Source: Microcoleus sp. Aus8_D2
GTDB taxonomy: Bacteria > Cyanobacteriota > Cyanobacteriia > Cyanobacteriales > Microcoleaceae
DNA length: 64,000 nt
Assembly: GCF_036702665.1 (NCBI RefSeq)
Contig: NZ_JAUBUN010000017.1
Location: 41,769 to 105,768, forward strand
Direction: 5' to 3'
The position numbers and the translations under genes are program-made. The notes under the pieces are model-generated. The model was given only the letters and a program-made list of their open reading frames with translations. It was not told the origin of the DNA and ran no database searches. Shown in pieces: positions 28,423 to 43,331 of this stretch; position 1 is the first letter of the stretch; every line of letters begins with the position of its first letter.

Positions 28423-28529
28423 AAAGAGCTTTTTTATTGTTGTGTCTGGAGTAGAGATGCAGCGACATTCATCAATCTCTGTAATGAATTGGTTTATCGA
28501 TCCATATCTTAAAGAAGGTTTAAAATATC

Positions 28530-28742
28530 ATGAATAGTTGCCCTTGTTGCTCCTCTCAATTGTTACGCCACGCTCGCCACAATCGCGTTTATTGGTTCTG
28601 CTCGCGCTGCTGGCAGGAAATGCCGGATCTGTCGGAGATGATTTTAGGTAACAGCCTGCGGACTCACAAACGGGACGGTTTGGTGAAGCTTCCAGCTTTA
28701 ACTCCTAAAGTGAGGATTTTGGATTCTGTAGGAATTGCTTAG
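28530..28742 (+). CDS. Hypothetical zinc-ribbon protein (CxxC ... CxxC)
   Basis: MNSCPCCSSQ...WFCSRCWQEM. ORF only. Confidence 0.3.
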   Translation: MNSCPCCSSQLLRHARHNRVYWFCSRCWQEMPDLSEMILGNSLRTHKRDGLVKLPALTPKVRILDSVGIA

Positions 28743-28863
28743 GAAAGCTGGAGTTGGACTGACGATAAATATTGAGACGGAAAATTTTTTTGATTGTACC
28801 ATGGGTTGGATTTTTTAATAAAAAATGCAAAAGCCCCTTCACTATCAATGAAGGGGACTTATT

Positions 28864-28906
28864 GGCGGGCGGGCGATCGCACTTGTAAGGGGGTCGATCG
28901 CCCGCC
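28864..28906. terminator. GC-rich HIP1 hairpin (ggcgggcgatcg ... cgatcgcccgcc), candidate bidirectional terminator between convergent genes
   Basis: 12-bp stem, between stop of 28530 ORF and stop of hli. Confidence 0.4.
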
Positions 28907-28946
28907 ACAAATTACAGTTATTGTATATTCTATAGACTTAAGCTGA

Positions 28947-29090
28947 TTACATCAAACCGATTTGAGCGAGAATGCCTTGACCGGTCAGGAATTCCGTAGC
29001 CAGACCGATAACGAAGCCCAGCATTGCCAAACGACCGTTCCAGGTTTCAGCGAACTCTGTGAAGCCTACTTTTGCGTCTTTGTTTTCCAT
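28947..29090 (-). CDS. hli: High-light-inducible protein (HLIP/Scp, one-helix CAB family), 47 aa
   Basis: Minus-strand translation MENKDAKVGFTEFAETWNGRLAMLGFVIGLATEFLTGQGILAQIGLM contains the chlorophyll-binding E..NGR.AM.GF motif. Missed by the >=60-aa ORF track. Confidence 0.8.
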   Translation of the reverse strand: MENKDAKVGFTEFAETWNGRLAMLGFVIGLATEFLTGQGILAQIGLM

Positions 29091-29247
29091 AACCAGAAAC
29101 CTCGTTGTATTTCAACCTTATGTAACTAAACTTAACACAGCAGTAAAAATATTGCAACATATTTTTACATTGGGTGGACAAAGGCGAGAGAGAGGGAGAA
29201 TGGGAGAGGGGGCAGATTCCCTCCGCAACGCTTGGCCCATAATATGG

Positions 29248-29307
29248 TAGGGGCGGGTTCGCCCAGATATCGGGCATAAATCCAAGATCCTGTAAACCCG
29301 CCCCGGC
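29248..29307. repeat. Mini-hairpin dispersed repeat (GGGGCGGGTT/AACCCGCCCC family)
   Basis: ggtaggggcgggttcgcccagatatcgggcataaatccaagatcctgtaaacccgccccggcc. Confidence 0.7.
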
Positions 29308-29415
29308 CAGGATATTATGGTCGATCGATCGTCCAGGATATGAGATAGTCTGCGGGATGTTAGAATTGCGGGCGCGGACTCGCCCCGACAAGCTTAGCGA
29401 TGGTGACAAACTGCA

Positions 29416-32400
29416 ATGAAATTGATTAAGCGGACGGCTCTTTATTTTCAGGACGGTCGATCGGATAAAGTATACGAAGTCGATTTGTGTCAAACCGGCG
29501 AAAACCTCTACTCGGTCAACTTTCGCTACGGACGGCGGGGCGCCAATCTCCAGGAAGGCACAAAAACCGATACACCAGTGCCCTTGGCCAAAGCTGAAAA
29601 AGTTTTCGACAAGCTAGTCGCGGAAAAGGTAAAGAAAGGCTATCAGGAAGCAGCCAGCGTTGCTGATGTTGCACCCGCGCCAGAACTTCCTCGCGCCGAG
29701 ACGCGCCAACAAGCTATTTTGAACCGTCTTGCCGGCGCTGGCAATCCTAAATGGCCTCTGGAACGGGCTATTTGGCGCGCTGGGGAGCTGAAAATTACCG
29801 AAGCCGGGCCGGGACTGATTAACTTAATCGGTACGGGAGAACCGCTGCGAGACTACTGTATTGCTTGGAGTTTGGGTTGGTGCGGCGGCGAGGGCGCTGT
29901 GGAGGCGCTGACTCGGCTGTATCGGGATGCTGCGACTGCGGAGTTTGTGAGGAGAATTGCTTTTGAAGGATTGCTGAAGTTGGCGGATGAGGAAGCGCGA
30001 TCGCACCTAGAATCGTCCATAATAGAATTGCTACCCCCACAGTTGCGCGAATTAGCTGCAAACGGCAGCGCTGAGGAATTTTCAGCAGCATTGAAAGTTG
30101 AACTCGACACGGAAGATAGCAGTCGTTTTGCGGTTCTCGATCGACTTTACCAGATTGACAGTCAGTTTGTGCGATCGGCATTACTGGATATCTTAAAAAC
30201 TGCACCGCTAAAACCCCATTATTTTAAACAAATCCGCCACATCTTCAAAATGGCGGAATACCGTCGCGACGCCGAAGTATTTGCGATTGTGGCCCGCCGC
30301 TTTGAGGACGAAAAAGCCATGTACCGCAGCAATGCTTGGTATATTAACATTCCTGGTGGCGGGTATCTGACAAAGCAAGACTGGGCGTACAACGAACAAA
30401 CAGGCAAAAATGAATACACTGCAAACAGCAGTTTTCTAGAGGAAATGCAGAGTCCCAATTGCCGAATTGCCTACAGCAGCAGTACGCGCAGCTACTTAAT
30501 TAAAAGGGTGTGGCGCACTCTCAAACAATTAGGCGAAGAAAGCGATGCTGATTATGTAAAAATGGCTGTCAGCATTTTGCTGCAATACGTTGATAGCGAT
30601 GCCGAAGCAGTTTTGCAGATCACTTATTATCAGTGGATTCGCTCTAAGGGGACTAGCGATGCTGATTATCAATGGGATTTCTCTAATTGGAATAAAATCA
30701 GTTATTCATCTGAATGGGATATCTTTGCCGGTTACTTAACATTTAACCGCATTCTCTACGAAAACAGCCCGCGCTATGCTTATTTTACCAATTCGCAAGC
30801 GTGGCGCTGCAGAGAAGGTTACAAACCAGGAGATCCGGAGCCGGAAGTGCGAGAAGAAGCTTTTCCCGAACTTTGGGAACAATATCCCGATGCGCTGTTG
30901 CAATTGTTATTAGCCAGCAACTGCCGCCCGGTGCACCATTTCGCTGTGAAAGCGCTGAAAGCTTGTCCGCAATTTTTAGCTGGGATAGATGCTGACACTG
31001 CAATCAAACTGATTGCTGTACCTTACGAAGTTACAGCCGAACTGGGTTTCAATTTGGCAGTCCAAAACGGATATCATCGATATCCAGCCCACCGCGAAGT
31101 AATTCTAGGGCTGGTTAACTGCATATTTGTGCCAGCGAGAACCCAAGCTTTTGACTGGATTGACGAACAGCGCGATCGCATTTTATCAGATACAGAATTA
31201 ATTGTTACTCTAGTAACCAGCTTGTACGCAGACACCAGGCAATTTGCCCGCAGGTTGCTCAACTCATCAATTCTCAGCCCTGCAACCGTCAGGCTACTAA
31301 TTGGCAAACTGATAGCCCATTTATTAACATTTCAACCAACAGAATTCATTCCGACTCATACCTCAATTGTAGCCAAAGACATCGCCGATACGCTCCTGCT
31401 CAACTTTACCCCACAACTGCGGAGTTTGGGATTGGGAGTTATCCTGGATTTGCTGCGGCATCCGGTGCCGGAAGTTCAGGAATTGGGGGCGAGAATTTTG
31501 CTGAATCACGAAATCGGTGCGGCTGATTTGCCGTCTGAATTAATCGAATCGCTAATTGCGTCGCCCTACGAACAAATTCGAAGAATTGGCATCAGGTTAT
31601 TCGGTCAATTACCGGACGAATCGCTAACAAGTTCTCAGACAAGTTTGATAGTAGGAATGGCAGTCAATGCTTTGGCCGACATCCGCAATTCTATTAAACC
31701 AGTAATTCGGCGTTTGGCCGCCGAATATCCCGAATTTGCAGCGCTGGTTGCTGGGGAATTGATTGATGTGTTGCTGATACCGGAAAGACAGGAAGGAGTA
31801 CACAGTTATTTGCTCGATTTGCTGCGGCAAGATATTCCGGGGTGGATGTCGGCGATGGATAAGGACAAGACTTGGCTGCTGCTGAAAGCTAAGTCTGCTG
31901 TCGCGCAGGAATTAGGCGGATTTGTGCTGGTGAAAAATAGCACGAATTGGGCGGCGGAGTTTGATACAATTGAGATTGTCAAGCTGGCGAGTCACGAGAT
32001 TTTTTCGGTGCGAGAATCTGCGAGACAAATGTTTTTGCAAAAGCTAGATGCGATTCGCGCCAATTCTCAAGAAATGCTGTCAGCCGTGCGGCTGCTGGAG
32101 GCAAAATGGGATGATTCGCGGGAATTTGCCGCCAGGATTTTTCGCACGGAATTGACTGAGGCAGATTGGACTCCGGAAATTATGGTTAGTCTTTGCGACA
32201 GCATTCGGGAAGATGTGCGGCAATTCGGCAGAGATTTGGTAATTCGCTATTTTCAGGATGAGTCCGGACACGATTATTTGCTGAAGTTTAGCGAGCATCC
32301 GTCGGCGGATATGCAGTTGTTTGCTACTAATTATTTGGAGAGTTATGCTGCAAGCAATCCTGAGAAATTGCGGGAATTAGCGCCTTTTTTGGTCGCGGTT

Positions 32401-32640
32401 TTGTCGCGGGTGAATCAGGGAAGGGTGGCGAAGCGCCGAGTTTTTGCGTTTCTGGATGCGGAGGCGCAAAAGAGTGAGGCGGCGGCCGGGATTGTTGCGG
32501 ATATTTTAACCAGGCAATCGGCTACAATTGCGATCGCAGATAAAGCAGCGGCTATTGAGACTATGCTGAAGATTCGCCGGCGTTATCCTCAGATAGATTT
32601 GCCAATTCAGGTAAAGCCTGTGGTTGAGGTGAGGAGTTGA
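29416..32640 (+). CDS. WGR-domain protein with long HEAT/ARM-like helical repeats and probable DUF4132-type C-terminus (MolR-like), 1074 aa
   Basis: N-terminal WGR: RTALYFQDGRSDKVYEVDLCQTGENLYSVNFRYGRRGANLQEGTK...AEKVFDKLVAEKVKKGYQE. Remainder is alpha-helical repeat. Confidence 0.75.
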   Translation: MKLIKRTALYFQDGRSDKVYEVDLCQTGENLYSVNFRYGRRGANLQEGTKTDTPVPLAKAEKVFDKLVAEKVKKGYQEAASVADVAPAPELPRAETRQQAILNRLAGAGNPKWPLERAIWRAGELKITEAGPGLINLIGTGEPLRDYCIAWSLGWCGGEGAVEALTRLYRDAATAEFVRRIAFEGLLKLADEEARSHLESSIIELLPPQLRELAANGSAEEFSAALKVELDTEDSSRFAVLDRLYQIDSQFVRSALLDILKTAPLKPHYFKQIRHIFKMAEYRRDAEVFAIVARRFEDEKAMYRSNAWYINIPGGGYLTKQDWAYNEQTGKNEYTANSSFLEEMQSPNCRIAYSSSTRSYLIKRVWRTLKQLGEESDADYVKMAVSILLQYVDSDAEAVLQITYYQWIRSKGTSDADYQWDFSNWNKISYSSEWDIFAGYLTFNRILYENSPRYAYFTNSQAWRCREGYKPGDPEPEVREEAFPELWEQYPDALLQLLLASNCRPVHHFAVKALKACPQFLAGIDADTAIKLIAVPYEVTAELGFNLAVQNGYHRYPAHREVILGLVNCIFVPARTQAFDWIDEQRDRILSDTELIVTLVTSLYADTRQFARRLLNSSILSPATVRLLIGKLIAHLLTFQPTEFIPTHTSIVAKDIADTLLLNFTPQLRSLGLGVILDLLRHPVPEVQELGARILLNHEIGAADLPSELIESLIASPYEQIRRIGIRLFGQLPDESLTSSQTSLIVGMAVNALADIRNSIKPVIRRLAAEYPEFAALVAGELIDVLLIPERQEGVHSYLLDLLRQDIPGWMSAMDKDKTWLLLKAKSAVAQELGGFVLVKNSTNWAAEFDTIEIVKLASHEIFSVRESARQMFLQKLDAIRANSQEMLSAVRLLEAKWDDSREFAARIFRTELTEADWTPEIMVSLCDSIREDVRQFGRDLVIRYFQDESGHDYLLKFSEHPSADMQLFATNYLESYAASNPEKLRELAPFLVAVLSRVNQGRVAKRRVFAFLDAEAQKSEAAAGIVADILTRQSATIAIADKAAAIETMLKIRRRYPQIDLPIQVKPVVEVRS

Positions 32641-32720
32641 TTTTTAGTTAAGATTTGTGGAATTGGGATGTCGGAAAGGGCGATCGATGCTAAATGTAGG
32701 AGGCAGATTTGATAAAGTGT

Positions 32721-32890
32721 TCGTAGTGAGGACTTTAGTCCTCTGAATTTGATGCGGACTGAAGTCCTCACTACGAACTGGATTTTATGCGGACTGAAGT
32801 CCTCACTACGAACCTGAATTTGATGCGGACTGAAGTCCTCACTACGAACCGGATTTGATGCGGACTGAAGTCCTCACTACGAACCTAGTT
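32721..32890. repeat. Tandem array (~4 copies of a ~40-bp unit tgatgcggactgaagtcctcactacgaacc) of the GTAGTGAGGACT hairpin family
   Basis: Read directly. First copy is in opposite orientation (cgtagtgaggactttagtcctc). Array ends 12 bp before the SWIM gene ATG. Confidence 0.85.
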
Positions 32891-32902
32891 GAAAAAAATA
32901 TT

Positions 32903-34546
32903 ATGGAATTTAACTACTCTTACAAAGGAAATACCGAAGTTGCTGAAAGCGGCGGCAGCACGCAAATGTCTTTTTCTCCCGACACCAAACGTCCGCCCAC
33001 TTATTTTATCGGAGAATTGCGTCAAAATGTCGCTTTTCGCGAAGCAATTAGCGCTTTGCACGATGTCGTGGTTTCCGATATGCGCTTCAAACCCAAAGAC
33101 AAAACAGCTTATAAAGAATGGGCAGCCCAACAGCAAGAAATCGATTGGCAATTAATCGCCTGCCGCCAACAAAAAGTTGCCCAAAAAGTTCAGCCGCTGC
33201 AAGCAGAGTTCAACGAGTTAACTCGGCGTCAACACCAACGTCTGGCACCTTTTTATCGCGCCCAACAGCAATACTTTGACTACATTTATCAAAAAGACCG
33301 CGATGCTTGGTTTGTCCTCGATCCGGTGATTACAGTACATCCCGATGAGGTATTTTTCGAGTGTTTCAGTCAGGATGAGTCGAGTTACGGCCGCCTCGGC
33401 GCCAGCTACGAAGTGTTTAAAAATATCAGCGAGTTTGCTTGCGGCACGACTAATATCGACTACTCGGCAGCGCTTTATGATGAATTTCAAAAAATCCGCA
33501 GTTACAAGACTACTTCGCTGCAAGTAGATCCCTCGGGTTTTGAAGTTCAAACGGTGCATGAAGAGACTTTTAAAGAAGTCAAAATAGACTTACCTGACAG
33601 TTGGGTGAGAGGATTTTTGCAAGTTAGTTCGGCGATGTCTTTGCCGGCGGTGCGGTTTGATTTGCACCCGATGGACATCCACAATATTTGTTTTGTTTTG
33701 CGCCGCCACAAGGAGAAACAAGGCCCGCGCAGTATGCGCTACATCCTGAATCCGGGGGAACCGGTGCGGGTGATTTTCGATCCGTGGGGTACGGAAGTTG
33801 TTTGCGCGCGATCGCCCTATACTGGTTCGCAAGCACAGGAAATTCGAGTTTGGGGAAGGCGCCGCCTTCACATTCTCGAAAGACTGATTCCCGTCGCCAA
33901 AAAGTTCACAGTTCACCTGTTAGGAACGGGAATGCCTTCTTTTTACGTCGCCGATTTGGGCGATATGTCATTTACCCTAGGATTGTCGGGATGGAGTGCC
34001 AATGATTGGTCGCAATCCGGTAACTTTGATTTAATGGCCCCGCGCGCCGATGTAGATGCTTGGACGCAGCAATTAATCTTTGATGCACTCAAAGAAAATT
34101 GGGTAGAAACTGCTGACAGTTTGGCCGCCAGACTGAAGTTAAATCGGGCGTCAGTGTTGGGTGCATTGAGTGCCTACACGCAAGCGGGAAGGGCAATTTA
34201 CGATTTGAACAAACAGGTGTACCGAGTGCGGGAATTGAGCCGAGAACCTTTGCCCTTAGAACGTTTGAGATTTGCCAACGAAAGAGAATCAAAAGCAACT
34301 CTTTTCTTGAGTGAAAATGCGGTACAAGTGACCGATTTTACCAGCGATTCTTCCGGTGCATTCACCGTGCGAGGCAGTGTCACAGACCGGGAAAAAACCT
34401 TGAATCCGCACTTGACAATTGATGCCGATGAGCGTATAATTGAGGCAGAATGTACTTGTAATTGGCACCAGCAAAACAAGCTGTACAAAGGCCCTTGCGA
34501 ACACATTTTAGCGCTGCGAATGCAACACGCACGTCAGTGTCAATAA
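32903..34546 (+). CDS. SWIM zinc-finger family protein (547 aa)
   Basis: C-terminal SWIM motif CTCNWHQQNKLYKGPCEHILAL (CxC...CxH). Start moved to ATG 32903 (MEFNYSYKG) because the upstream ORF extension is repeat sequence. Confidence 0.7.
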   Translation: MEFNYSYKGNTEVAESGGSTQMSFSPDTKRPPTYFIGELRQNVAFREAISALHDVVVSDMRFKPKDKTAYKEWAAQQQEIDWQLIACRQQKVAQKVQPLQAEFNELTRRQHQRLAPFYRAQQQYFDYIYQKDRDAWFVLDPVITVHPDEVFFECFSQDESSYGRLGASYEVFKNISEFACGTTNIDYSAALYDEFQKIRSYKTTSLQVDPSGFEVQTVHEETFKEVKIDLPDSWVRGFLQVSSAMSLPAVRFDLHPMDIHNICFVLRRHKEKQGPRSMRYILNPGEPVRVIFDPWGTEVVCARSPYTGSQAQEIRVWGRRRLHILERLIPVAKKFTVHLLGTGMPSFYVADLGDMSFTLGLSGWSANDWSQSGNFDLMAPRADVDAWTQQLIFDALKENWVETADSLAARLKLNRASVLGALSAYTQAGRAIYDLNKQVYRVRELSREPLPLERLRFANERESKATLFLSENAVQVTDFTSDSSGAFTVRGSVTDREKTLNPHLTIDADERIIEAECTCNWHQQNKLYKGPCEHILALRMQHARQCQ

Positions 34547-34820
34547 CTTAATAAATCGCGCGTTTAAATTGGTAAACAGCCTTGCAATCCGGGCGGTGGA
34601 TCGCCGTCCTTGCGCTTAGTCTAGACAAGCATCACTAGCCTGCTCTTGACTGTGCGGGGCTTCGGGTACTGTTGGTATTGCGGTGTGGCTTCTGCGAAGC
34701 CAACGACCCACAGTACCCGGCCCCGCTGGAGTTGAGCAGTCTAGTCCTGAGGGGTTTACGAAGGGGCAACCAGTGGCGGCGCGCGATTTTTTTTTGTTTT
34801 CATGACTTGGCGTGCAGCCC

Positions 34821-34885
34821 AAAGAAACCGGGTTTTTGACCCTTACTGTGGACTACAACGAAGGAGACGCGAAAAACCCGGTTTC
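34821..34885. repeat. MITE-like element, copy A
   Basis: aaagaaaccgggtttttgacccttactgtggactacaacgaaggagacgcgaaaaacccggtttc. Flanks gcgtgcagccc / gcccgtgcgtcc. Confidence 0.65.
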
Positions 34886-34932
34886 TGACCGCCCGTGCGT
34901 CCTGGACTGTGTTTGTTAAGAGGGTTCGAGGG

Positions 34933-35253
34933 ATGATAAATGTAGCAATCAATTGGATGTCAATTCTGGGCTTAGTTGATATAGCTTTGGCGGTGGCTTA
35001 TCTAGTGACAGCTATAGTAAATTCGGGAATGCGATCGCAAATTATCGGCAGTACAGGCATAATACTTTACATCATTCAAGGCATCATGGCTGTTGGGGTG
35101 TTGCCAGTCAGCGGTTTTATTTTATTGTTTCAAGGTTGGCGGCTAGATCCTATTTTGGGATTTCAGCAATTTTTACTTCATGTTTTGTTGATTTTTTTAG
35201 CATTTAAGGATGCTTTTATTTACGGTTTAGTTACTCGACAATCTCGGCGCTGA
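34933..35253 (+). CDS. ycf66: Ycf66-family membrane protein
   Basis: MINVAINWMSILGL... and LLFQGWRLDPILGFQQFLL match the Ycf66_N pattern (MVNFGLNSASILGI...FFQGWRLDPILQFGQFLL) as I recall it. Start at ATG 34933. Confidence 0.55.
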   Translation: MINVAINWMSILGLVDIALAVAYLVTAIVNSGMRSQIIGSTGIILYIIQGIMAVGVLPVSGFILLFQGWRLDPILGFQQFLLHVLLIFLAFKDAFIYGLVTRQSRR

Positions 35254-35432
35254 AATGCTTGGGGATGTCAGAAAAATATTGTTCGCTTATACCAACTATC
35301 AAAAATCATACAACAGTGTTTCATACCCGATAAAACTCGGCGGTTGAAACCGCGTCTATACAAACGAAGTCCGCCTACGCGGACTTAAGAATAACGGGAT
35401 GAATAACCCGGATTTGGTATTACGCATTAAGG

Positions 35433-35500
35433 CCAAAGAAACCGGGTTTTTACCTAATCGGTGGACTACTGCGAAGGATTTTCTCCAAAAACCCGGTTTC
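35433..35500. repeat. MITE-like element, copy B
   Basis: ccaaagaaaccgggtttttacctaatcggtggactactgcgaaggattttctccaaaaacccggtttc. Same internal ggtggactac..gcgaagga as copy A. Confidence 0.65.
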
Positions 35501-35512
35501 TGACTGAATCTA

Positions 35513-35773
35513 TTAGATGCGAAGGTATTTCACAAAAATACTCATCACCTCACCACTTTTAGCAGTTGGTAGTAGAGGGCTCCAGACACCAACCTCAGCG
35601 TAACCGCGCGCGTGGAGTACGTGAATTGTACTCCTGACAGCTTGGGGAGAACCTATCAGCAGATGTTTTAGGGGTTCTTTCTCAGGGTTTGCTGCGTCGG
35701 GAGTTAGCAGAAACGCGGGAAGTTGAGTAACGGCGCTGCTGGAATTGGATAAAAAACTCTGTGTCACAGTCAT
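35513..35773 (-). CDS. Hypothetical protein (86 aa)
   Basis: ORF only. Confidence 0.3.
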   Translation of the reverse strand: MTVTQSFLSNSSSAVTQLPAFLLTPDAANPEKEPLKHLLIGSPQAVRSTIHVLHARGYAEVGVWSPLLPTAKSGEVMSIFVKYLRI

Positions 35774-35849
35774 TAAATGCTTTTCCTAGTTGAGTGCTAC
35801 ATCCAAAAAATACAACACCCAGCCCCTCACAGTCACAAAATTAGTGTAA

Positions 35850-36194
35850 TTATTCACCTATTATTTGAGATTTATTTTTGATTCGTTCCAGTACCTCCTC
35901 CAAAAAATCTTCGTTTTTGCCAGCAACCTCGATCATTTCTCGCAGCGTGTCAGCGTAGGACAAGGTACGCTGGTGGTGGTCTGGCATTTTTTCAAAACCC
36001 GGCCCCCACCGCTTGACGGCATCAATATTGACGCCTAAAACCTTTACCAGAAGCAGGTTGCAACGTGCTTTGTAGCCTCTGGCTTTCTCTTCTTCTTGTG
36101 TGGCGTGGAACCACCGACGGCAAAAATCCCAAGCTTCCATTGACTCACTCAGCCAGCTAAACCATTTGTCGCGTCGCGACGTTCTGCAACGCAA
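35850..36194 (-). CDS. Hypothetical protein (114 aa, or 96 aa from MEAWDF)
   Basis: ORF only. Acidic C-terminal helix. Confidence 0.35.
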   Translation of the reverse strand: MRCRTSRRDKWFSWLSESMEAWDFCRRWFHATQEEEKARGYKARCNLLLVKVLGVNIDAVKRWGPGFEKMPDHHQRTLSYADTLREMIEVAGKNEDFLEEVLERIKNKSQIIGE

Positions 36195-36306
36195 GCAACA
36201 TAGGGGAAAAATTACACTGTTTTAGGATTATGGTATCATCCGATTTGGTGTAATATTTCCCCTAATAGACTATAGCTGACAATTGGGACTCATCCACGAG
36301 TAGCCA

Positions 36307-36370
36307 GAAACCGGGTTTTTTACGAAAATACTTCGCTGCATCCCGCAGATTCGACAAAAAACCCGGTTTC
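36307..36370. repeat. MITE-like element, copy C
   Basis: agaaaccgggttttttacgaaaatacttcgctgcatcccgcagattcgacaaaaaacccggtttc. Confidence 0.65.
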
Positions 36371-36511
36371 TTTTGTCGCAGCGCATAAGTCCGGTTGATA
36401 AAATAAAGCTCAAAAAATAAATCATATTACCTCTCGACATTTTAGAATTAACGTGGCATCATCAAAGTAGTATAGCTGAGATAAACAACCTCATTCAAAA
36501 GCAAGGAGTGT

Positions 36512-36640
36512 TGGTTAAGTCGTCTCAGCGAGATGATGAGTTTATTTCGGCTGGCACAACATTTATTTAAATGTATATATCAACGGGTTTTTAGAACCCC
36601 TAGCCGAAATAAACTCATCATCTCGCTGAGACGCTAACCA
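36512..36640. repeat. Long inverted repeat: ~38-bp arms (ggttaagtcgtctcagcgagatgatgagtttatttcggct / agccgaaataaactcatcatctcgctgagacgctaacc) around a 45-bp AT-rich spacer
   Basis: Arms match as reverse complements with two differences (one base-substitution mismatch plus a 2-nt indel). Intergenic, 150 bp upstream of the NYN gene. Confidence 0.8.
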
Positions 36641-36787
36641 AACAAGGACAAACTAAATTCATCGTTTGTCGTTAGAGGAATCTGTTAAATGGGAAATCTC
36701 ATTTTTGAGCAAGCCCAAAAACAATACTTTGTGCTAGATGGGTAATTTATTGATGCTGTCTGTTCACCCTTTTTTCGGAACGATCCA

Positions 36788-37288
36788 ATGACAGACAATC
36801 ATCGAACCACAGGCAAACAAAAAAGTCAGTCTCAGCCTTTAGTTTCTATTTATTGGGATTATCAGAACATCCCTGATTACAAACGAGCCAAAGATTTATT
36901 ACTCTTTGCTAGTGAACTAGGATATGTAGTCAATCAAAAAGTTTACGACAATTGGAAACAGAGAAATAAGACCACACAAGAAACTTTGAATTATCTAAAT
37001 TTTGAATGTTTTGATGTATCCCTAAACATTAAAAATGCTGTAGACTTTTATTTGTCAATGAACTGCTGTAGCGAGGCTTCAAGGAGTTCATACCCACACA
37101 CATTTATTATTGTGTCTGGAGACGGCTACGGTGAAATTTTGATTCACGAGCTGCAAGACAAGGGGAAGGAGGTAATAATTGTTGCCCGCAAAGGTAATGA
37201 TAGTCACAATCTCAAAAAGCTTGCCGATCGATTTTACTTGATCGATGAATTGCCGAAGTCGATACAGACTTGCAAACAGACCGCCTAA
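36788..37288 (+). CDS. NYN-domain (LabA-like, PIN-fold) putative ribonuclease
   Basis: VSIYWDYQNI (first Asp), TFIIVSGDGYGEIL (DGD motif) and IIVARKGNDSHNL are the characteristic NYN acidic residues. Confidence 0.7.
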   Translation: MTDNHRTTGKQKSQSQPLVSIYWDYQNIPDYKRAKDLLLFASELGYVVNQKVYDNWKQRNKTTQETLNYLNFECFDVSLNIKNAVDFYLSMNCCSEASRSSYPHTFIIVSGDGYGEILIHELQDKGKEVIIVARKGNDSHNLKKLADRFYLIDELPKSIQTCKQTA

Positions 37289-37470
37289 ATTTGTGTAGAT
37301 TTACCTCGCCGCAGATAGCAAAAATCCAGTTTATTTGATAAACTAGATTCTCCAAACCAACCGCTGTCTGCGGCCCTTTCATGTCCGTCAACATCATTAC
37401 ACTAAACTCCAAAAGCAGTAACAATTACCAAGTTTTCATGCAATTAACTAATCCAACAAAAGAGATACAA

Positions 37471-38154
37471 ATGACCCTTCCCGAATTCAACAATGACAAA
37501 CTGCTGCGCCAAGCGCTCACCCACCGTTCGTACGTCAATGAAAACCCCACATTGCGCGAAGAAGACAACGAACGCTTAGAATTTCTCGGCGATGCTTTGC
37601 TGACTTTTCTCAGCGGTGAATATCTCTACCAGCGCCATCCTGAAATGGGAGAAGACCAACTTACTCGGCGGCGTTCTGCATTGGTAGATGAAAAACAATT
37701 AGCCAGATTTGCTACTGAAATAGATTTGGACTTAAAAATGCGACTCGGAAAAGGAGCTTATCGAGAAGGTGGGATTACCAATCCAAATTTGCTCAGTAGC
37801 ACTTTTGAAGCGTTCATTGGTGCTTACTATCTCGATACGCAAGATATGGACAAAGTTCGCGGTTTTGTGTGGAAACTGTTTGACTCGGTTCCCGAAAATG
37901 TTGTGGAAACTCGATCGACTGTAGACTCGAAAAACCGCTTTCAGGAATGGGTACAGACCAACGGCGAAACGACTCCGCCCAAATACGGGACTGTTCAGGT
38001 ACAAGGAACGCCGCCCCACGCACCGGAATTTCTCGCTAAAGTGTATGTTGCAGAGAAACTCTATGGAGAAGGTAAAGGCAAAAGCAAAAAAGATGCGGAA
38101 AAAAATGCAGCCGAAGATGCACTAGCTAGGCTCAAAAAACGCGGTCTGATCTAA
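37471..38154 (+). CDS. rnc: Ribonuclease III (RIIID + dsRBD). Alternative starts at 37381 or 37438.
   Basis: RNase III signature ERLEFLGDALL, catalytic STFEAFIGAYYLD, C-terminal dsRBD (KNRFQEWVQ...GEGKGKSKKDAEKNAAEDALARL). Confidence 0.85.
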   Translation: MTLPEFNNDKLLRQALTHRSYVNENPTLREEDNERLEFLGDALLTFLSGEYLYQRHPEMGEDQLTRRRSALVDEKQLARFATEIDLDLKMRLGKGAYREGGITNPNLLSSTFEAFIGAYYLDTQDMDKVRGFVWKLFDSVPENVVETRSTVDSKNRFQEWVQTNGETTPPKYGTVQVQGTPPHAPEFLAKVYVAEKLYGEGKGKSKKDAEKNAAEDALARLKKRGLI

Positions 38155-38278
38155 ACTGGAAAATAGGGCAACTGCCAAAACGGTTAGGACGTTCTTAATT
38201 GCACAAACATAACCTGAAGATTCCTTTTTCCTTTACAATTCAAAATCTAAAATCCAAAATCCAAAATCCAAAATCGAT

Positions 38279-39676
38279 ATGACTGACCAGCCGCGCACTC
38301 GCCAGGAATTGTACGATCGCATCCGTTCTAGCAGCAAACAAGAATTCATTCTCGAAGAAATGATCCGCCTCGGTTTCTGGCCCGCACAAGGCGAAATTCC
38401 CCAAGATCCGGCCGACGAAATTCGCCGCATCGGGGAAATTCAGCGAGAACTAGGCGAACTGCGCAGGGAAAGTTCGCGGCTGCAAAACGAGAAAGCACTC
38501 CGCAAGGAAATGCTGCAACAGCGGCTTGCCGAATCCCGGCGCAAACGGCAGGAAACTAAGGAACGCCGGGAAAGAGAACGGCAAGAACGCGCTGAGAATT
38601 GGCGGCAAAAAAAACAGCAAGAAATTAGCTATCTCGGTGACGGTGTATCTGCGGGACTCGATCGCACAAACGGCAATGTAGAACGCTTGCAAAGCTATCA
38701 GTTACCGCTTGGCAATACAGCAGCAGAAATAGCAGCGGCGATGGACATCAGCATCGGACAATTGCGGTTTCTCGCTTTTTCCCGCAAAACTTCCCATATT
38801 TCCCACTACATCCGGTTTAAAATACCCAAGAAAACTGGCGGAGAAAGACTCATTTCCGCACCGATGCCCCGCCTCAAAAAAGCACAGCACTGGATACTTG
38901 CCAACATTCTCGAAAAACTCGAATTGCACGGCGCGGCACAGGGTTTTCGATCGCATCATTCAATTGTCACCAACGCTCAACCTCATGTAGGTTCGGAAGT
39001 TATTATCAACTTCGACCTAAAAGACTTTTTTCCCTCAATTTCGTACAGGCGAGTTAAGGGGCTTTTTCAATCTTTTGGATATTCCGAAGCTGGCGCCACA
39101 ATCTTCGGATTGTTGTGTACGGAACCGGAGGTTGAAGAATTGGAATTAGACGGCAAAACTTACTTTGTCGCAGTTACAGAACGCCATTTGCCCCAAGGTT
39201 CTCCCGCAAGTCCAGCGATTACTAATTTGCTGTGCCGCCGCCTCGACAAGCGCTTAACTCAAATGGCTCAGGAATTGGGATTTGTTTACACCCGCTACGC
39301 TGACGATTTGACATTTTCGGCATCGGGAGACAGCTTGCAAAACATTTGTAACGTACTCAGGCGCACGGAGGCGATCGTTATTCATGAAGGATTTAGCATT
39401 AACGAACAAAAGACTCGGATATTGCGAAAAAATCGGCAACAAGAAGTTACGGGAATAGTGGTCAACGAGCAACTGAGTATTTCCAAGAAAGTGTTAAAAC
39501 GCTTCCGCGCAGCTTTATTTCAAATCCAGAAAGACGGGCCTGAGGGGAAGCGGTGGGGGAATTCGACTGATGTTTTAGCATCGATTCAAGGTTTTGCTAA
39601 CTTTGTAGCAATGGTAAATCCCGAGAAAGGTGCAGAATTTATCGAACAGGTGAAAGCCATTAAAAATAAATGGTAA
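38279..39676 (+). CDS. ret: Retron-type reverse transcriptase with ~150-aa N-terminal coiled-coil extension (465 aa)
   Basis: Alignable to retron-Ec86 RT: KIPKKTGGERLISAP (motif 1/2), HHSIVTNAQPHVGSEVIINFDLKDFFPSI (NAxxH + motif A), LPQGSPASPAITNL (B'), YTRYADDLTFS (C) and QQEVTGIVVN (retron VTG motif). The core equals residues ~140-465. Five copies of the octamer AAAATC(C/T) sit directly upstream of the ATG. Confidence 0.85.
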   Translation: MTDQPRTRQELYDRIRSSSKQEFILEEMIRLGFWPAQGEIPQDPADEIRRIGEIQRELGELRRESSRLQNEKALRKEMLQQRLAESRRKRQETKERRERERQERAENWRQKKQQEISYLGDGVSAGLDRTNGNVERLQSYQLPLGNTAAEIAAAMDISIGQLRFLAFSRKTSHISHYIRFKIPKKTGGERLISAPMPRLKKAQHWILANILEKLELHGAAQGFRSHHSIVTNAQPHVGSEVIINFDLKDFFPSISYRRVKGLFQSFGYSEAGATIFGLLCTEPEVEELELDGKTYFVAVTERHLPQGSPASPAITNLLCRRLDKRLTQMAQELGFVYTRYADDLTFSASGDSLQNICNVLRRTEAIVIHEGFSINEQKTRILRKNRQQEVTGIVVNEQLSISKKVLKRFRAALFQIQKDGPEGKRWGNSTDVLASIQGFANFVAMVNPEKGAEFIEQVKAIKNKW

Positions 39677-39748
39677 TATCGCCCTGCTAAATTTTGTAGT
39701 GAGGACTTCAGTCCTCTGTATCGGTGTCTGGGAATCATACCATAGATC

Positions 39749-39862
39749 TCTTGCAAAAGTCTTTTAGATCGAATTTTGGAACGGGCAAGATGCCCATTCC
39801 ACAGAAAAAAATATTTTTGTGGAACGGGCATCTTGCCCGTTCCTAACTATTTTTGCAAGAAG
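39749..39862. other. Structured element downstream of the RT: short inverted repeats (tcttgcaaaag / cttttgcaaga) flanking a ~32-bp-stem hairpin (ggaacgggcaagatgcccattccacagaaaaa / tttttgtggaacgggcatcttgcccgttcc). Candidate ncRNA or dispersed hairpin repeat.
   Basis: Read directly. The hairpin core GGAACGGGCAnnnTGCCCRTTCC is related to the 14547..14700 repeat, so a generic repeat origin is equally plausible. Confidence 0.3.
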
Positions 39863-40052
39863 TCTCATTTATAAAAGTCTTGTTACAACATAATTGTTCG
39901 GTGGAGTGAAACGGAGGGTTGTTGACTTAACCTGGATGCACAGGTGCGGATCTATAGAGATTGTCGATTTTATACAGCATAATTTTTGAGATATCCGCAC
40001 CCTGCGGTTGCTCAAGTCGTGACTGCAAACAAGTTTTATTGTTTGCCTAAAG

Positions 40053-41048
40053 CTACTCTTGCTTTCTCAGAGTAGAAGCTCTTTTAGCGATGCGAATTAA
40101 ATATCTCGGCGACATCTCTTTATCGACAGTAATGCGAGAAATGCGGTAGTTATTTTCCAGTCGGTTTACTCTGAATAAACGGTCATCGTACAAAAAGCCT
40201 GTTAAATGATATTTAGGCAAAATCTGTTCAACTTCCCCGTCTGATGCGCCGTAGGGGTAGGCGATGTGAGCGCCAATTACTTTATTTTTGTCTAAATCTC
40301 CCATACATTTTCTCAATTCTGACTTAGATTTAGCAATTTCAAATTCTAATTCTTTGCCGTTGATTTGAGTTAAGTTTTTGTGAGTAAAGCCGTGAGACTG
40401 AACATCATAAAAACCTTTTTTGTATCCGTCTCTTAAATCATTGCAAGTAGTGTGTGGTAAAAAATCTCTCCCCATATCAACACCTAAAAAGTGCGGGTTG
40501 ACAAATAACACAAATTTCCCTTTTTGTTTGTAACTAAGGGACAGTTTTTCCAAGATAGGAAGTGCATTTTCATGAACGCCTTTATACCCGTCGTCAAAGG
40601 CGATCATAATCGGTTTTTGACCAATTTTTTGAGCTGGTATTGGCTGCGACTTGTCGATAAAGTATACGTACAAGTCTTGAGATGATAACAGCCAATAGTT
40701 TTCTTTAATTAGATATTCTAAAAAAACTGACAAATCTTGTTTTGTGTAGTCAATGGAGAAAGCAAGCCGCTTCGGTGGCAATTCGGCGGGATTTTGAGTG
40801 TCTACAATATCGTGAAAGCCGATTATGGGGATTCTGATGAAATTAGATTCTACTGTCCAGCCAGAAATACCTATACAGATGGTAAATATCAGCAATAAGT
40901 AAATCGGTTTGGCTTTGTGTATCACCCGAAATAGAAATTTTATCATATTTTTTACGTTTTTTAACAATTGTTCGCTCATTGTTTTATTATCAATCTGTGT
41001 GTTCTTCATCTTTACCACTAATAGACCCAAATTCAGCAAGGTTGACAT
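40053..41048 (-). CDS. Polysaccharide deacetylase (NodB homology) family protein with N-terminal TM anchor
   Basis: NodB motifs MIAFDDGYKGV (TFDDG-like) and QSHGFTHKNL (His motif). N-terminal hydrophobic helix PIYLLLIFTICIGISGW. Confidence 0.7.
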   Translation of the reverse strand: MSTLLNLGLLVVKMKNTQIDNKTMSEQLLKNVKNMIKFLFRVIHKAKPIYLLLIFTICIGISGWTVESNFIRIPIIGFHDIVDTQNPAELPPKRLAFSIDYTKQDLSVFLEYLIKENYWLLSSQDLYVYFIDKSQPIPAQKIGQKPIMIAFDDGYKGVHENALPILEKLSLSYKQKGKFVLFVNPHFLGVDMGRDFLPHTTCNDLRDGYKKGFYDVQSHGFTHKNLTQINGKELEFEIAKSKSELRKCMGDLDKNKVIGAHIAYPYGASDGEVEQILPKYHLTGFLYDDRLFRVNRLENNYRISRITVDKEMSPRYLIRIAKRASTLRKQE

Positions 41049-41267
41049 TTTTTTGCTATTTATTTGGAATATAGGTAGAGTGTGTGATGCAGCAGTTGGC
41101 GCAGCTATCGAAGAGGAGGGCTGCGATCGCTAAGGAAGAGTGAGCCAAATTGAGTGCCAGGGCCGACAATGCGCTATAATCGGGGCTGGCGCGAGTGTTA
41201 CCGCCGTCGATTGAGGGTTGCAATGCCAGAAATCCGTTGACGAGTACGCGAAGGTCGATCGTACTTT

Positions 41268-41717
41268 TTGGAAATATCAGAGCAATTCATGTCTACTCAA
41301 AACCAGACTACCCTAACTGTAGAAGCAGCACAGCAAATCCTCAAGGATTTTACTTGTCTGGATATGCAATCTGTAGCATCGCCGCTGGAAAAACAGGCGC
41401 TGCGTGAAGCGATTTTGCTGGTAGCAAGTTTGTCCGATTACCAAATGCTGGGTGTTTGTGCGACTTCCACGGATGAGGGTTTTGCTGCTTTAGCAACTTA
41501 TTTGAAGGCTTTGGGATATCAAGCTGTCTTAGATCCAAGTGCTTTTGCTGCATTTACTGGTTCGGTTTATATTAAGTTCAATACTTTGAAGGGTTCGTAT
41601 TATGTTGATGGTTATCCCGGAACTTATCGAGGCGTGTTAATATCCTGCCAATTTTCCTCGGAAGATGGAGTTAGCGGGACTTACGGTCATTTACCTCTCG
41701 ATTTGTTTGTTGATTAA
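41268..41717 (+). CDS. Conserved hypothetical protein (possibly DUF1824-like)
   Basis: ORF with reasonable composition. Domain assignment uncertain. STRR octamer array begins right after its stop. Confidence 0.4.
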   Translation: MEISEQFMSTQNQTTLTVEAAQQILKDFTCLDMQSVASPLEKQALREAILLVASLSDYQMLGVCATSTDEGFAALATYLKALGYQAVLDPSAFAAFTGSVYIKFNTLKGSYYVDGYPGTYRGVLISCQFSSEDGVSGTYGHLPLDLFVD

Positions 41718-41721
41718 TTCG

Positions 41722-41812
41722 GAATGGGGAATTGGGCATGGGGCATGGGGCATGGGGCATGGGGAATTGGGCATGGGGGATGGGGCATTGGGCATTGGGA
41801 ATGGGGAATCAA
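41722..41812. repeat. STRR octamer array (GGGCATGG / GGGAATTG variants x ~11)
   Basis: ggggaattgggcatggggcatggggcatggggcatggggaattgggcatgggggatggggcattgggcattgggaatggggaatc. Confidence 0.9.
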
Positions 41813-41903
41813 CTTCACTATTACAGTTAATGTAGAGTGCGTTAGCAAAGAGCCTACCGATTAAATCGACAATAATGCCTGACGCACCCTACAAAAAAAG
41901 AGA

Positions 41904-43331
41904 TTAACCTTGACCTATGATTAATTCTGGCTGTGATTCTAGTGCGGTTTGTTCTGGTGGGATTCCCAAAATATCGCTGTACAAGTTGACATATTTTATG
42001 GCAGAAATATCCCAGCCAAAATCTTCTTTCATGCCGCGTTTTTGCAGTTCTTTCCACTTATCTTTGTAGCGGAAACCTTCCCAGGTTCGGATCATGCAGG
42101 TGAACAAGTCGAGGGGTTCGTAGCGATCGAAACAGTAGCCTGTGCCGGTATCATTAATCGGGTCGTTGTGAGATACGGTATCGACTAAACCGCCCGTGCG
42201 GCGCACCATGGGGACGCAGCCGTAGCGGAGGGCGAGCATTTGGCTGATGCCGCAGGGCTCGAAACGGCTGGGCATTAGGAAGGTGTCGCAGCCTGCGTAA
42301 ATGCGCCGGGAGAGGGCGTCGTTGTAGAGTAATTGGGTGGACATCCGGCCGGGATAGCGGGCGGTCATTTGCCAGAGTTGGGTTTCGTAGTAGCGATCGC
42401 CAGTTCCGAGTACAATAAACTGAGCGTCGGTATAGGCCATGAAGCGATCGAGCATTTGAATGATCAAATCCAATCCCTTCTGTTCTACCAGCCGCGTGAC
42501 CATGCCGATTAACAGGGCATTTTTATTCACTTCCAAACCGACTTCTTCTTGCAGCGCGATCTTGTTGGCTGGGCGTTTTTCAATAGTATCAACACTAAAT
42601 TGTTGATGGAGGTATCTGTCAGTTTCTGGGTTGTAAGATTCTGTATCAATTCCGTTCAAAATGCCTGATACTTTGCCGCCGAGGAAAGATAGCAAACCTT
42701 CCAAAGTTTCCCCGTAAGCTGGGGTTTTGATTTGTTCGGCGTAGGTGGGCGAAACTGTATTTACGCGATCGGCAAACTGTACTGCCGCAGCCATTGTATT
42801 GTGACCTTGCATATACCAAGGACACCAAGTCATCTGCTCCAAACGCCAGCGCCACGGCCCTTGATAAGCTAAATTGTGAATAGTAAAAACCGTGCTGATA
42901 TCGGGGTCTTGGCTCATCCAAACAGGTATCATCCCCGTATGCCAATCGTGACAGTGCATAATTTGGGGTTTCCAGTGATTCCAGGCAAATTCAGCAGCAG
43001 TATTAGCAAAGAAAGTGAATCTCCAATCTTCATCGACGCCGCCGTAAACGCGGCGGGGTAAGAAAGATGGATGTTGCATTAAGTATAAAGGTACATCCGT
43101 GCCCGGCAAAACACTTTCAAAGACGGAGAAGCTTTGGAACATGGCCTCCCCATTCCAAACGGGTTTTTTGGGAACGTCCATTTTGTCGGGGATGAAGCCG
43201 TAGTAGGGCATGAAGATGCGGACATCGTGACCCATGCGGCGCAGAAATTTAGGCAAAGCGCCGACGACATCGCCCATACCGCCTACTTTGGCTAGGGGTG
43301 CTGCTTCGGCGGATACAAATAAAATGCGCAT
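41904..43331 (-). CDS. glgA: Glycogen synthase (ADP-glucose type)
   Basis: [30 protein letters not shown] (KVGG motif), GT5 + GT1 domains, 475 aa. Confidence 0.9.

Follow-up and report, generated by a model that had tools for sequence, protein, structure and literature searches.

Retrons are normally defined as one contiguous cassette of msr-msd RNA and reverse transcriptase (RT), and the type XIII family holds the first retrons ever found, Mx162 and Mx65. In the current classification type XIII corresponds to RT clade 10, with Retron-Nex2/Ne144, Mxa1/Mx162, Mxa2/Mx65 and Sau1/Sa163 as members, and its associated protein is characterised by a DEDE motif, a winged helix and a CxCx12CxH SWIM finger (Mestre et al. 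2020, PMC7736814). We found no demonstrated function for type XIII retrons in the literature searched, nor a solved structure in PDB sequence searches.

Here we consider a 64,000-nucleotide stretch of DNA from Microcoleus sp. Aus8_D2 (hereafter the window), in which a first-pass annotation had noticed a retron-like RT directly downstream of an RNase III gene (rnc) and a NYN nuclease gene. We conclude that this locus is probably a complete retron of type XIII (the Mx162/Mx65/Sa163/Ne144 family) whose gene order has been broken, and that RNase III and NYN are not its effectors. It is an unusual, split layout of an already known system rather than a new type of retron.

The four parts of the retron

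The RT gene (38279..39676; this and all features below are on the plus strand unless stated) encodes 465 residues, of which 2-464, N-terminal extension included, match the PADLOC RT_XIII profile (659.8 bits, E=6.5e-199). That profile outscores every other in PADLOC, the next best being RT_other (306.7 bits, E=9.6e-92), as befits an RT of clade 10, and Nannocystis RTs are 55-59% identical to the window RT across residues 1-465. NAQPH, FDLKDFFPSI, YTRYADDLTFS and EVTGIVVN can be read in the translation, and the NAxxH, YADD and VTG motifs of retron RTs are invariant among 25 homologues. Its best solved relative is the RT of Retron-Eco1/Ec86 (7v9u, 7xjg, 8qbk), residues 133-417 aligning with Ec86 residues 8-271 (E=3e-45), so that the Ec86-like core described in the first-pass annotation is borne out. 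The N-terminal extension of some 150 residues that it noted as absent from Ec86 is also real, at about 125-150 residues reckoned from the start of this alignment, and AlphaFold predicts, with moderate confidence (pLDDT 66.9), a single long helix at residues 44-114. RT identity across cyanobacterial orders is 72-94% and mean column identity 82% with the extension included; this indicates, on the alignments, that the RT is under purifying selection. Inheritance of type XIII in cyanobacteria appears mostly vertical in neighbour-joining (NJ) trees, which were unbootstrapped. A ‘retron-RT’ named in a Trichodesmium transcriptome paper belongs to a DGR and is irrelevant here.

Two partner proteins known from type XIII are encoded upstream. 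The gene at 29416..32640 encodes a WGR and HEAT/ARM-repeat protein of 1074 residues, which matches PADLOC WGR_XIII almost end to end (E=0, profile positions 1-970 of 973), as well as HEAT-ARM_XIII and, in Pfam, WGR and HEAT_2; this is the WGR-like and HEAT/ARM protein (cluster 216) that precedes the associated protein in type XIII, and its gene precedes the SWIM gene in about 40 related loci. The primary associated protein of type XIII (cluster 114) is encoded at 32855..34546, as a protein of 563 residues assigned to the DEDE/winged-helix/SWIM zinc-finger kind. It matches PADLOC SWIM_XIII end to end (E=2.4e-247) and Pfam SWIM (residues 522-554), and its C-terminus, read directly, runs C-T-C, twelve residues, C-E-H, which is exactly CxCx12CxH. 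PDB sequence searches gave no useful match for either the SWIM or the WGR protein.

The msr-msd RNA lies at 34535..34800 and was located by an nhmmer profile of the intergenic regions between SWIM and RT genes, Nannocystis included (E=1.8e-77). Searching the whole window with nhmmer --max, even at E<=100, returned no other match to this profile, and the segment is homologous to SWIM-RT spacers at more than 40 loci, among them that of Nannocystis exedens DSM 71. It comprises a1 (34553-34562), the msr stem-loop, a long msd hairpin and a2 (34780-34789), followed by a run of nine T. The predicted fold has a minimum free energy of -115 kcal/mol (z=-6.2), and includes a duplex of 10 bp or more and a hairpin of about 40 bp. 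In the consensus fold 93.5% of cells are paired, compared with 31-44% in slid controls; 30 of the 47 pairs show compensatory changes, and the covariation score is 0.399 against at most 0.114 in the slid controls. Complementarity of a1 and a2 is retained across loci despite their differing sequences. The terminal a1/a2 stem and fold of a type XIII RNA are therefore present by homology, z-score, pairing and covariation. Rfam is uninformative for type XIII RNAs, because a search of 28000-42000 with all families at E<=10 gave no retron or msr family even at the true RNA; the sole matches in that interval were spurious microRNA models on two long hairpins.

A consensus sigma-70-type promoter, TTGACA-17-TATAAT, matching at 12 of 12 positions, sits at 34412..34440, within the 3′-terminal part of the SWIM gene, where it overlaps conserved coding sequence. 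The same motif occurs at an offset of -123 from the RNA in about 30 cyanobacterial loci, with scores of 10-12 out of 12, and we regard it as a candidate promoter of the msr-msd RNA.

Separation of the RNA from the reverse transcriptase

The WGR/HEAT gene, the SWIM gene and the msr-msd RNA follow one another on the plus strand (29416-34800), and the RT lies downstream at a distance of 3479 nt from the RNA, so that the two do not form one contiguous transcriptional cassette. Between them stand, in order, a gene for a Ycf66-like small membrane protein (34909..35253; Pfam Ycf66_N, E=4.3e-6), two small minus-strand ORFs of 86 and 114 aa (35513..36194), then NYN and rnc. The Ycf66-like gene is inserted material unrelated to the retron, found at this site only in the close Microcoleus relatives L001 and L004; the two minus-strand ORFs have no match in Pfam, PADLOC or NCBIfam and are conserved in the same two loci. 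Co-transcription of the RNA with the RT is ruled out, since opposite-strand ORFs intervene and a U-run follows a2. The absence of an msr/msd upstream of the RT, as claimed in the first-pass annotation, thus holds within the stated 36788-39676, where the 124-bp gap before the RT is unstructured, but not for the locus. Its suggestion that the RNA might lie elsewhere was right in principle and wrong as to place: the RNA is upstream, after the SWIM gene, and not downstream of the RT.

Related loci show which layout is the older. Of 80 loci, 23 have WGR, SWIM, RNA and RT in this order with a gap of at most 300 nt, as do all the outgroups; the window is therefore a derived, interrupted form. In 17 cyanobacterial loci RT and RNA are separated, and in 28 there is no RNA within at least 3 kb, so that the RT is unlinked from its template RNA in 45 of the 68 evaluable loci and contiguous with it in only 23. 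The Microcoleus loci L001, L002 and L004 have the split layout of the window. Type XIII in cyanobacteria is hence widespread, highly conserved and often split, and this frequent splitting contradicts the one-cassette working definition of a retron; detection pipelines that depend on a cassette will consequently call such RTs orphans, and the first-pass annotation likewise took the window RT for one.

We suggest the following sequence of events. The msr-msd RNA would have a promoter to itself, within the last part of the SWIM gene, and a 3′ end set at the a1/a2 stem and U-run, while the RT would be made from a separate mRNA, most likely by read-through from NYN-rnc or else from a weak promoter in the 124-bp gap. 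RT and RNA would then have to meet in trans over 3.5 kb, which we assume; the RT could prime on the 2′-OH of a G beside the a1/a2 stem, a conserved G being the branch point of msDNA in retrons generally, and copy the long msd hairpin to give a branched msDNA which, judging from the family, may be roughly 140 nt. Again by analogy with the family, the msDNA-RT particle may work with the WGR/HEAT and SWIM proteins. RNase III and NYN would belong to the resident RNA metabolism of cyanobacteria, their genes having been caught between the two parts of the broken retron.

RNase III and NYN genes upstream of the reverse transcriptase

The three co-oriented ORFs for NYN, RNase III and RT are confirmed where the first-pass annotation had placed them, and Pfam and NCBIfam matches uphold its naming of the NYN domain and of the dsRBD-containing RNase III. 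The rnc ORF occupies 37381..38154, with a likely start at 37471 giving 227 aa. Its product exceeds the cut-off of the NCBIfam equivalog TIGR02191 (224.5 bits, cut-off 166.25), matches Pfam Ribonuclease_3 and dsrm, and has NERLEFLGDALL and STFEAFIGA in its translation; catalytic domain, ERLEFLGDA signature and dsRBD of a canonical bacterial RNase III are thus all present. Cyanobacteria usually have one to three RNase III genes, and the canonical paralogues, such as Alr0280/All4107 of Anabaena PCC 7120 and A0061/A2542 of Synechococcus PCC 7002, form two clades (PMC10989914). We also recover two rnc paralogue clades in an unbootstrapped NJ tree, the window gene falling in clade A. Orthologues 70-78% identical to it occur in Nostoc, Gloeotrichia, Merismopedia and Leptolyngbya, and rnc orthologues elsewhere adjoin recJ, lpxB, BrkB, ABC-transporter or hemC genes; from these comparisons RNase III is a core cyanobacterial gene. 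No second rnc copy is present in the 64-kb window.

The NYN protein (36788..37288, 166 aa; Pfam NYN, PF01936, E=1.7e-18, above cut-off) is a C-terminally truncated member of its subfamily: its relatives have 257-306 aa, and all carry an extra C-terminal domain of about 100 aa which it lacks. The GDxDF motif, both Asp of which belong to the conserved acidic set of NYN/LabA-like nucleases, reads GDGYG in the window protein, and the closest relative (L084a) is 47% identical. NYN lies near an RT in only four of 80 loci (L002, L006, L029 and the window's own subfamily), and NYN-rnc pairs occur with no RT nearby in L085 and L090.

Several DNA elements accompany these genes. A near-perfect hairpin of about 45 bp, with perfect arms of 32 nt (36508..36645; -78.7 kcal/mol, z=-13.9), lies in the leader of the NYN-rnc genes and is kept upstream of NYN in L006. 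It may serve as an RNase III substrate or in regulation, or may just as well be a small mobile palindrome. As an alternative msd it was rejected, because it is not framed by a1/a2, does not resemble the RNA profile, and is conserved along with the NYN leader and not with RTs. A second conserved hairpin lies between NYN and rnc (37308..37374; inverted repeats I21 and I22, z=-5.9), in a gap that is 72-88% identical in L002, L003, L005, L006 and L011. The 124-bp gap between rnc and RT (38155-38278) is unstructured (z=0.06) and has no predicted terminator; abutting the RT start codon is a tandem repeat (38237..38275; TRF score 64), also found before the RT in L002, L004 and L028, whose unit is a 7-nt heptamer in 5.6 copies and not the AAAATCC octamer first reported. 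Beyond the RT, a hairpin of about 30 bp followed by a T-rich tail (39775..39846; z=-13.6) is the probable terminator of the RT gene.

Of the 80 loci, 12 have an rnc gene immediately before the RT, as does a Nostocaceae MAG (L086); in 11 of the 12 the two genes are co-oriented and 31-197 nt apart. These loci belong to Microcoleaceae, Coleofasciculaceae, Phormidiaceae, Okeania and one Nostocaceae MAG, and in unbootstrapped NJ trees they have scattered positions among the RTs and include members of both rnc paralogue clades. At the rnc site of some Microcoleus strains there are HEPN_Swt1-RNase III fusions and tandem rnc copies. This recurrent pairing exceeds a single chance juxtaposition and may reflect a functional tie. 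The remaining 68 of 80 loci, including all of those from Nannocystis and other myxobacteria and from acidobacteria, have no rnc within 10 kb of the RT. Microcoleus chromosome CP181291 (L087) has both flanks in common with the window, HK and RR at one end and PDA, DUF1824 and GlgA at the other, and at the syntenic locus it keeps the rnc genes while WGR, SWIM, RNA and RT are absent. In Microseira L084 NYN-rnc is intact and the RT is a fragment of 152 residues. RNase III and NYN are accordingly not obligate partners of the RT.

Alternative readings and comparison with known systems

The first-pass annotation had favoured RNase III and NYN as retron effectors or processing enzymes, naming three observations that would count against this, and these have largely been made: the RT mostly occurs away from rnc; this rnc is orthologous to a core gene found in other contexts; and an msr/msd with known partner proteins lies upstream, where no msr/msd had been recognised. 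Its third reading, coincidental adjacency to a housekeeping rnc, comes closest to the truth, but ‘coincidental’ is too strong, given that rnc and RT are paired repeatedly, in several families of cyanobacteria. That the RT belongs to a new system with no msr/msd, with RNase III and NYN as effectors or the hairpin at 39775-39846 as template RNA, we consider barely conceivable. The genes are near and co-oriented, and the hairpin 3′ of the RT is very stable; however, it resembles a terminator, does not match the RNA profile, is not framed by a1/a2 and is without equivalent at the other RT loci, and NYN, truncated in the window, is no constant companion of the RT, whereas the canonical RNA and both family-specific proteins are in place. 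Nor does it seem at all likely that the split has disabled the retron, leaving an orphan RT on its way to being lost in a locus of no present function. The RT is indeed parted from its RNA physically and transcriptionally, it has been lost cleanly in L087 and reduced to a fragment in L084, and in L020 all that is left of the RNA is its 3′ half, just upstream of rnc. Against this, all four parts are full length with motifs and profile coverage intact, the RT has been held at high identity across orders, RNA structure and promoter are retained, and several Microcoleus strains share the same split.

A further alternative is that in these filamentous cyanobacteria RNase III, possibly with NYN, has come to serve the retron as a functional accessory, with the RT kept in an rnc-RT operon. 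RNase III might trim the a1/a2 duplex or the msr-msd precursor, limit the dsRNA-like msd hairpin, or be monitored by the retron. Besides recurring, the pairing is more durable than the link of the RT to any other neighbour: the genes downstream are no longer the same in L005 and L006, and in L006, L011, L020 and L029 the RT stays with rnc although SWIM and an intact RNA are more than 8 kb off or absent. Both rnc clades occupy the position upstream of the RT, fusions and tandem copies arise at the same site, and the RNA duplex and hairpin are plausible RNase III substrates. Yet most RT loci manage with no rnc close by; rnc persists after loss or decay of the retron and is equally conserved in non-RT contexts; PADLOC has no RNase III model among its retron components, and the window rnc no PADLOC match; and we found no literature tying RNase III to msDNA synthesis, a T7 kinase paper that names the enzyme in its reference list alone being irrelevant. 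Transcriptional dependence would explain the stable adjacency equally well, if the RT lost its promoter on being split from the RNA. We therefore judge an accessory role unlikely, and regard as distinctly doubtful the fuller proposal that a type XIII retron has been rebuilt around the host RNase III, with the RT distal in a NYN-rnc-RT or HEPN-rnc-rnc-RT operon and RNase III maturing or controlling the RNA, or the retron reporting RNase III activity.

The recurrent placement of rnc before the RT nevertheless provides a testable hypothesis on maturation or control of the msr-msd RNA. RNase H1 is a host factor for E. coli retrons; if the hypothesis is true, RNase III would be a retron host factor as well and type XIII would be tied to dsRNA metabolism. 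If the link to rnc fails, what remains is a locus correctly placed in a known family.

Among known systems, E. coli RNase III cleaves a stem-loop in the 5′ UTR of its own rnc and so regulates itself through its leader. Long conserved hairpins (36508-36645 and 37308-37374) likewise precede rnc in the window; in sequence they are unrelated to the E. coli leader, and they are putative sites of cleavage. Like other cyanobacterial paralogues the window RNase III has the full domain and dsRBD, passes TIGR02191, is 70-78% identical to its Nostoc, Gloeotrichia and Merismopedia orthologues and fits the two-clade pattern, but its gene lies between a retron RNA and an RT, an RT-linked rnc recurs in 12 related loci, and HEPN_Swt1-RNase III fusions replace or join it in some Microcoleus. 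Retron-Eco1/Ec86 shares the NAxxH/YADD/VTG core and the principle of an msr-msd framed by a1/a2; in contrast, its RT lacks the helical N-terminal extension, its cassette is contiguous, and its effector is nucleoside deoxyribosyltransferase-like, not WGR/HEAT plus SWIM. With the type XIII retrons the locus shares the extended RT, the WGR and HEAT/ARM protein, the CxCx12CxH SWIM protein, an RNA, homologous to those beside the Nannocystis RTs, that contains a long msd hairpin, and largely vertical inheritance. It differs from them in the 3479 nt, with opposite-strand genes, NYN and RNase III, that separate RT and RNA, and in an RT that appears to have become part of the rnc transcription unit.

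The RT and its partner proteins

Three genes in one orientation fill 36788-39676, and their naming in the first-pass annotation as NYN, RNase III and a retron-like reverse transcriptase (RT) is borne out by Pfam, TIGR02191 and motif matches. The first (36788-37288, +) encodes a 166-aa NYN-domain protein (Pfam NYN, E=1.7e-18); the protein falls in a side subfamily and is truncated, lacking the C-terminal domain, and its GDxDF motif reads GDGYG. The second, rnc (37381-38154, +), encodes a canonical RNase III in which both the catalytic domain and the dsRBD are present (Pfam; TIGR02191, 224.5 bits against the NCBI equivalog cut-off of 166); comparison with homologues places its real start at 37471, giving 227 aa. 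The third (38279-39676, +) encodes the 465-aa RT, in which NAQPH, YADD and VTG are recognisable as retron motifs. Among solved structures the RT of Ec86 comes closest (E=3e-45), and since the alignment pairs residues 133-417 of the window RT with residues 8-271 of Ec86, the window RT does carry the long N-terminal extension first reported for it, of about 125-150 residues; within this, residues 44-114 are predicted, with moderate AlphaFold confidence, to form a single long helix.

The PADLOC model RT_XIII matches this RT over residues 2-464, "extension" included (E=6.5e-199), the runner-up model scoring under half the bits. Upstream lie genes for a WGR_XIII/HEAT-ARM_XIII protein (29416-32640, +; 1074 aa; PADLOC E=0; Pfam WGR and HEAT_2) and a SWIM_XIII protein (32855-34546, +; 563 aa; PADLOC E=2.4e-247). 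These are the same components as in the type XIII retrons (RT clade 10; Mx162, Mx65, Sa163, Ne144) of Mestre et al. (2020, PMC7736814), in which the associated protein has a DEDE motif, a winged helix and a C-terminal SWIM finger, CxCx12CxH, and usually follows a WGR/HEAT-ARM protein. The SWIM protein of the window ends in C-T-C-NWHQQNKLYKGP-C-E-H, an exact CxCx12CxH. On every sequence-level criterion tested, the locus belongs in the type XIII family. A sequence search returned no solved structure for type XIII proteins and, to our knowledge, no type XIII function has been demonstrated, so that any downstream mechanism is drawn here from the family.

The msr-msd RNA

Scanning a genome collection with the window RT, we kept the best 80 of 167 loci (55-94% identity), which span many cyanobacterial orders, Nannocystis (including N. 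exedens DSM 71) and Pyrinomonadaceae. When the window proteins were mapped onto these best 80 of 167, about 40, all outgroups included, had the order WGR, SWIM, a 300-500-nt spacer, RT. The SWIM-RT spacers have in common an element of about 260 nt that is strongly conserved, and a profile made from the conserved spacers matches the window at 34535-34800 (+; E=1.8e-77), beginning 11 nt ahead of the SWIM stop codon; there was no second match in the 64-kb window, even at E<=100 with filters off. Rfam holds no model able to detect the type XIII RNA.

The folding of this RNA (MFE -115 kcal/mol, z=-6.2) matches expectation for a retron msr-msd: a terminal stem of arms a1 (34553-34562) and a2 (34780-34789), followed by nine U, with a short conserved stem-loop (msr) and a long hairpin (msd). 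Across 30 sequences the pairing is kept in 93.5% of cells, against 31-44% with slid partners; compensatory changes occur in 30 of 47 pairs, with a covariation score of 0.399 against at most 0.114 in slid controls, and the a1/a2 arms vary in sequence between lineages with complementarity kept. The annotation's view of the 124-nt rnc-RT spacer, that it holds no structured RNA, is accurate inside 36788-39676 (z=0.06), and its suggestion that the ncRNA lay elsewhere was right in so far as the RNA sits at 34535-34800. Its headline, a retron-type RT lacking an msr/msd and partnered with RNase III and NYN, does not survive, as type XIII RT, SWIM, WGR and ncRNA are all present.

A consensus sigma-70 promoter (TTGAC[AG]-17-TATAAT; 34412-34440) is embedded in the 3' end of SWIM, and in about 30 cyanobacterial loci a motif of this type stands at a constant -123 relative to the ncRNA. 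It is a candidate ncRNA promoter, suggestive only, and overlaps conserved coding sequence; the stretch may be a dual-use coding/promoter sequence. Six related loci (L027, L031, L032, L057, L073, L076), in cyanobacteria and Pyrinomonadaceae alike, have two type XIII ncRNA copies, tandem or nearby, per retron.

The divided locus and its RNase genes

The RT starts 3479 nt downstream of the ncRNA, beyond a Ycf66-like gene, two opposite-strand small ORFs, small palindromic repeats, a 45-bp hairpin, NYN and rnc. With a U-run behind a2 and opposite-strand genes in between, it is implausible that ncRNA and RT share a transcript, and the stretch from rnc to RT has no predicted terminator and only a weak promoter-like site. 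We infer from this that RT expression comes from the NYN-rnc unit. The RT would then work on the ncRNA in trans. Such splitting is not peculiar to this genome: among the best 80 of 167 loci, ncRNA and RT are contiguous (<=300 nt) in 23 and 0.7-5.1 kb apart in 17, while 28 have no ncRNA within at least 3 kb of the RT and 12 are not judgeable.

Several smaller features were seen at such junctions. Three copies of a palindromic element (34823-34886, 35437-35501, 36306-36371; AGAAACCGGGTTTTT ... AAAAACCCGGTTTCT) occupy the DNA dividing the retron halves, and one copy is present in L087, a Microcoleus chromosome. One opposite-strand ORF (35850-36194; 114 aa, no family match) is flanked by 24-nt inverted repeats (35838-35861 and 36200-36223) that are 83% complementary. 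Another lineage-specific insertion at the ncRNA-RT junction encodes a conserved protein of 302 aa that matches no Pfam family, in the same orientation as the RT and abutting it (L027, L039, L040, L041, L045, L050; about 9063-9971), and is seen in the Floridaenema, Aerosakkonema and Phormidium lineages. In the window, 5.6 copies of a heptamer (38237-38275) stop 3 nt short of the RT ATG; the repeat precedes the RT also in L002, L004 and L028, the last without rnc.

Several observations speak against rnc and NYN as partners of the RT. Of the best 80 of 167 RT loci, 68, including every Nannocystis and acidobacterial locus among them, have no rnc within 10 kb. The clade of the window rnc is represented in Nostoc, Gloeotrichia, Merismopedia and Leptolyngbya by genes of 70-78% identity, and its orthologues stand in contexts without an RT: recJ and glycosyltransferases (L081), HNH and lpxB (L083), NYN and BrkB (L085), NYN and an ABC transporter (L090), hemC and a TonB receptor (L091). 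The second rnc clade is likewise found among unrelated genes (L088, L089), and two clades fit the 1-3 RNase III genes described per cyanobacterium (PMC10989914). Most telling is L087 (CP181291, 1288417-1301112), which is syntenic with the window at both flanks (left, PAS kinase and response regulator; right, deacetylase, DUF1824 and GlgA): WGR, SWIM, ncRNA and RT are all missing, and a HEPN-RNase III fusion and rnc are retained in the same place, making it a clean natural "retron-minus" comparator. In Microseira (L084), NYN-rnc is intact with the RT down to its last 152 residues. NYN-rnc is an independent gene pair (L085, L090), and the earlier alternative of a housekeeping rnc holds in part.

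On the other side, an rnc in the same orientation directly precedes the RT in 12 of the best 80 of 167 loci, with spacers of 31-197 nt in 11 of the 12, and also, 34 nt away, in L086, a Nostocaceae MAG (WGR-SWIM-ncRNA-DUF29-HNH-rnc-RT). These loci are dispersed over the RT tree, with both clades of the rnc tree represented (both neighbour-joining, without bootstrap), and all other RT neighbours turn over faster. In four loci (L006, L011, L020, L029) the RT keeps rnc though SWIM and any intact ncRNA are absent from the neighbourhood; in L020 the 3' half of the ncRNA alone remains, directly ahead of rnc. A biochemical role for RNase III, acting on the a1/a2 duplex or the 40-bp msd hairpin, could underlie such pairing, although we consider it improbable. 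The simplest account is that an RT severed from the ncRNA promoter now depends on that of rnc, so that the two stay together. The contigs of L011 and L072 are labelled Actinomycetota MAGs; their RT and rnc are 59-81% identical to cyanobacterial genes, and they are probably mis-binned.

The rnc locus of the window is itself a hotspot of RNase gene turnover. At the equivalent chromosomal site, other loci carry a Swt1-like HEPN fused to a full RNase III (L001, 8322-9536; L004, 7952-9148; L087, 4761-5960), and close Microcoleus strains have NYN with a clade A rnc, HEPN-rnc with a clade B rnc, or a HEPN-rnc/clade A chimera, between flanking genes 84-96% identical. A near-perfect hairpin of about 45 bp (36508-36645; 32-nt perfect arms, z=-13.9) stands 145 nt upstream of the NYN start and is kept there in L006; it may serve RNase III as a target in regulating NYN-rnc, or be a small mobile palindrome. 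The NYN-rnc spacer holds a nested hairpin (37308-37374, z=-5.9) and is 72-88% identical in L002, L003, L005, L006 and L011, unusually conserved for intergenic DNA. Elsewhere in the window, 43682-46318 (-) encodes a protein of 878 aa homologous to the eukaryotic major vault protein, with four kinds of Vault repeat domain and an MVP shoulder domain (E down to 7.7e-64).

Comparison with known type XIII retrons

Between cyanobacterial orders the RT keeps 72-94% identity, with conservation over its full length, and its neighbour-joining tree (without bootstrap) roughly tracks taxonomy, in agreement with the vertical inheritance described for type XIII retrons (PMC7736814). Among the general criteria for a retron, the one on which the locus falls short is that msr-msd and RT be contiguous. 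Its novelty is architectural: a split type XIII retron with its RT embedded in an RNase gene cluster, an arrangement that recurs in filamentous cyanobacteria.
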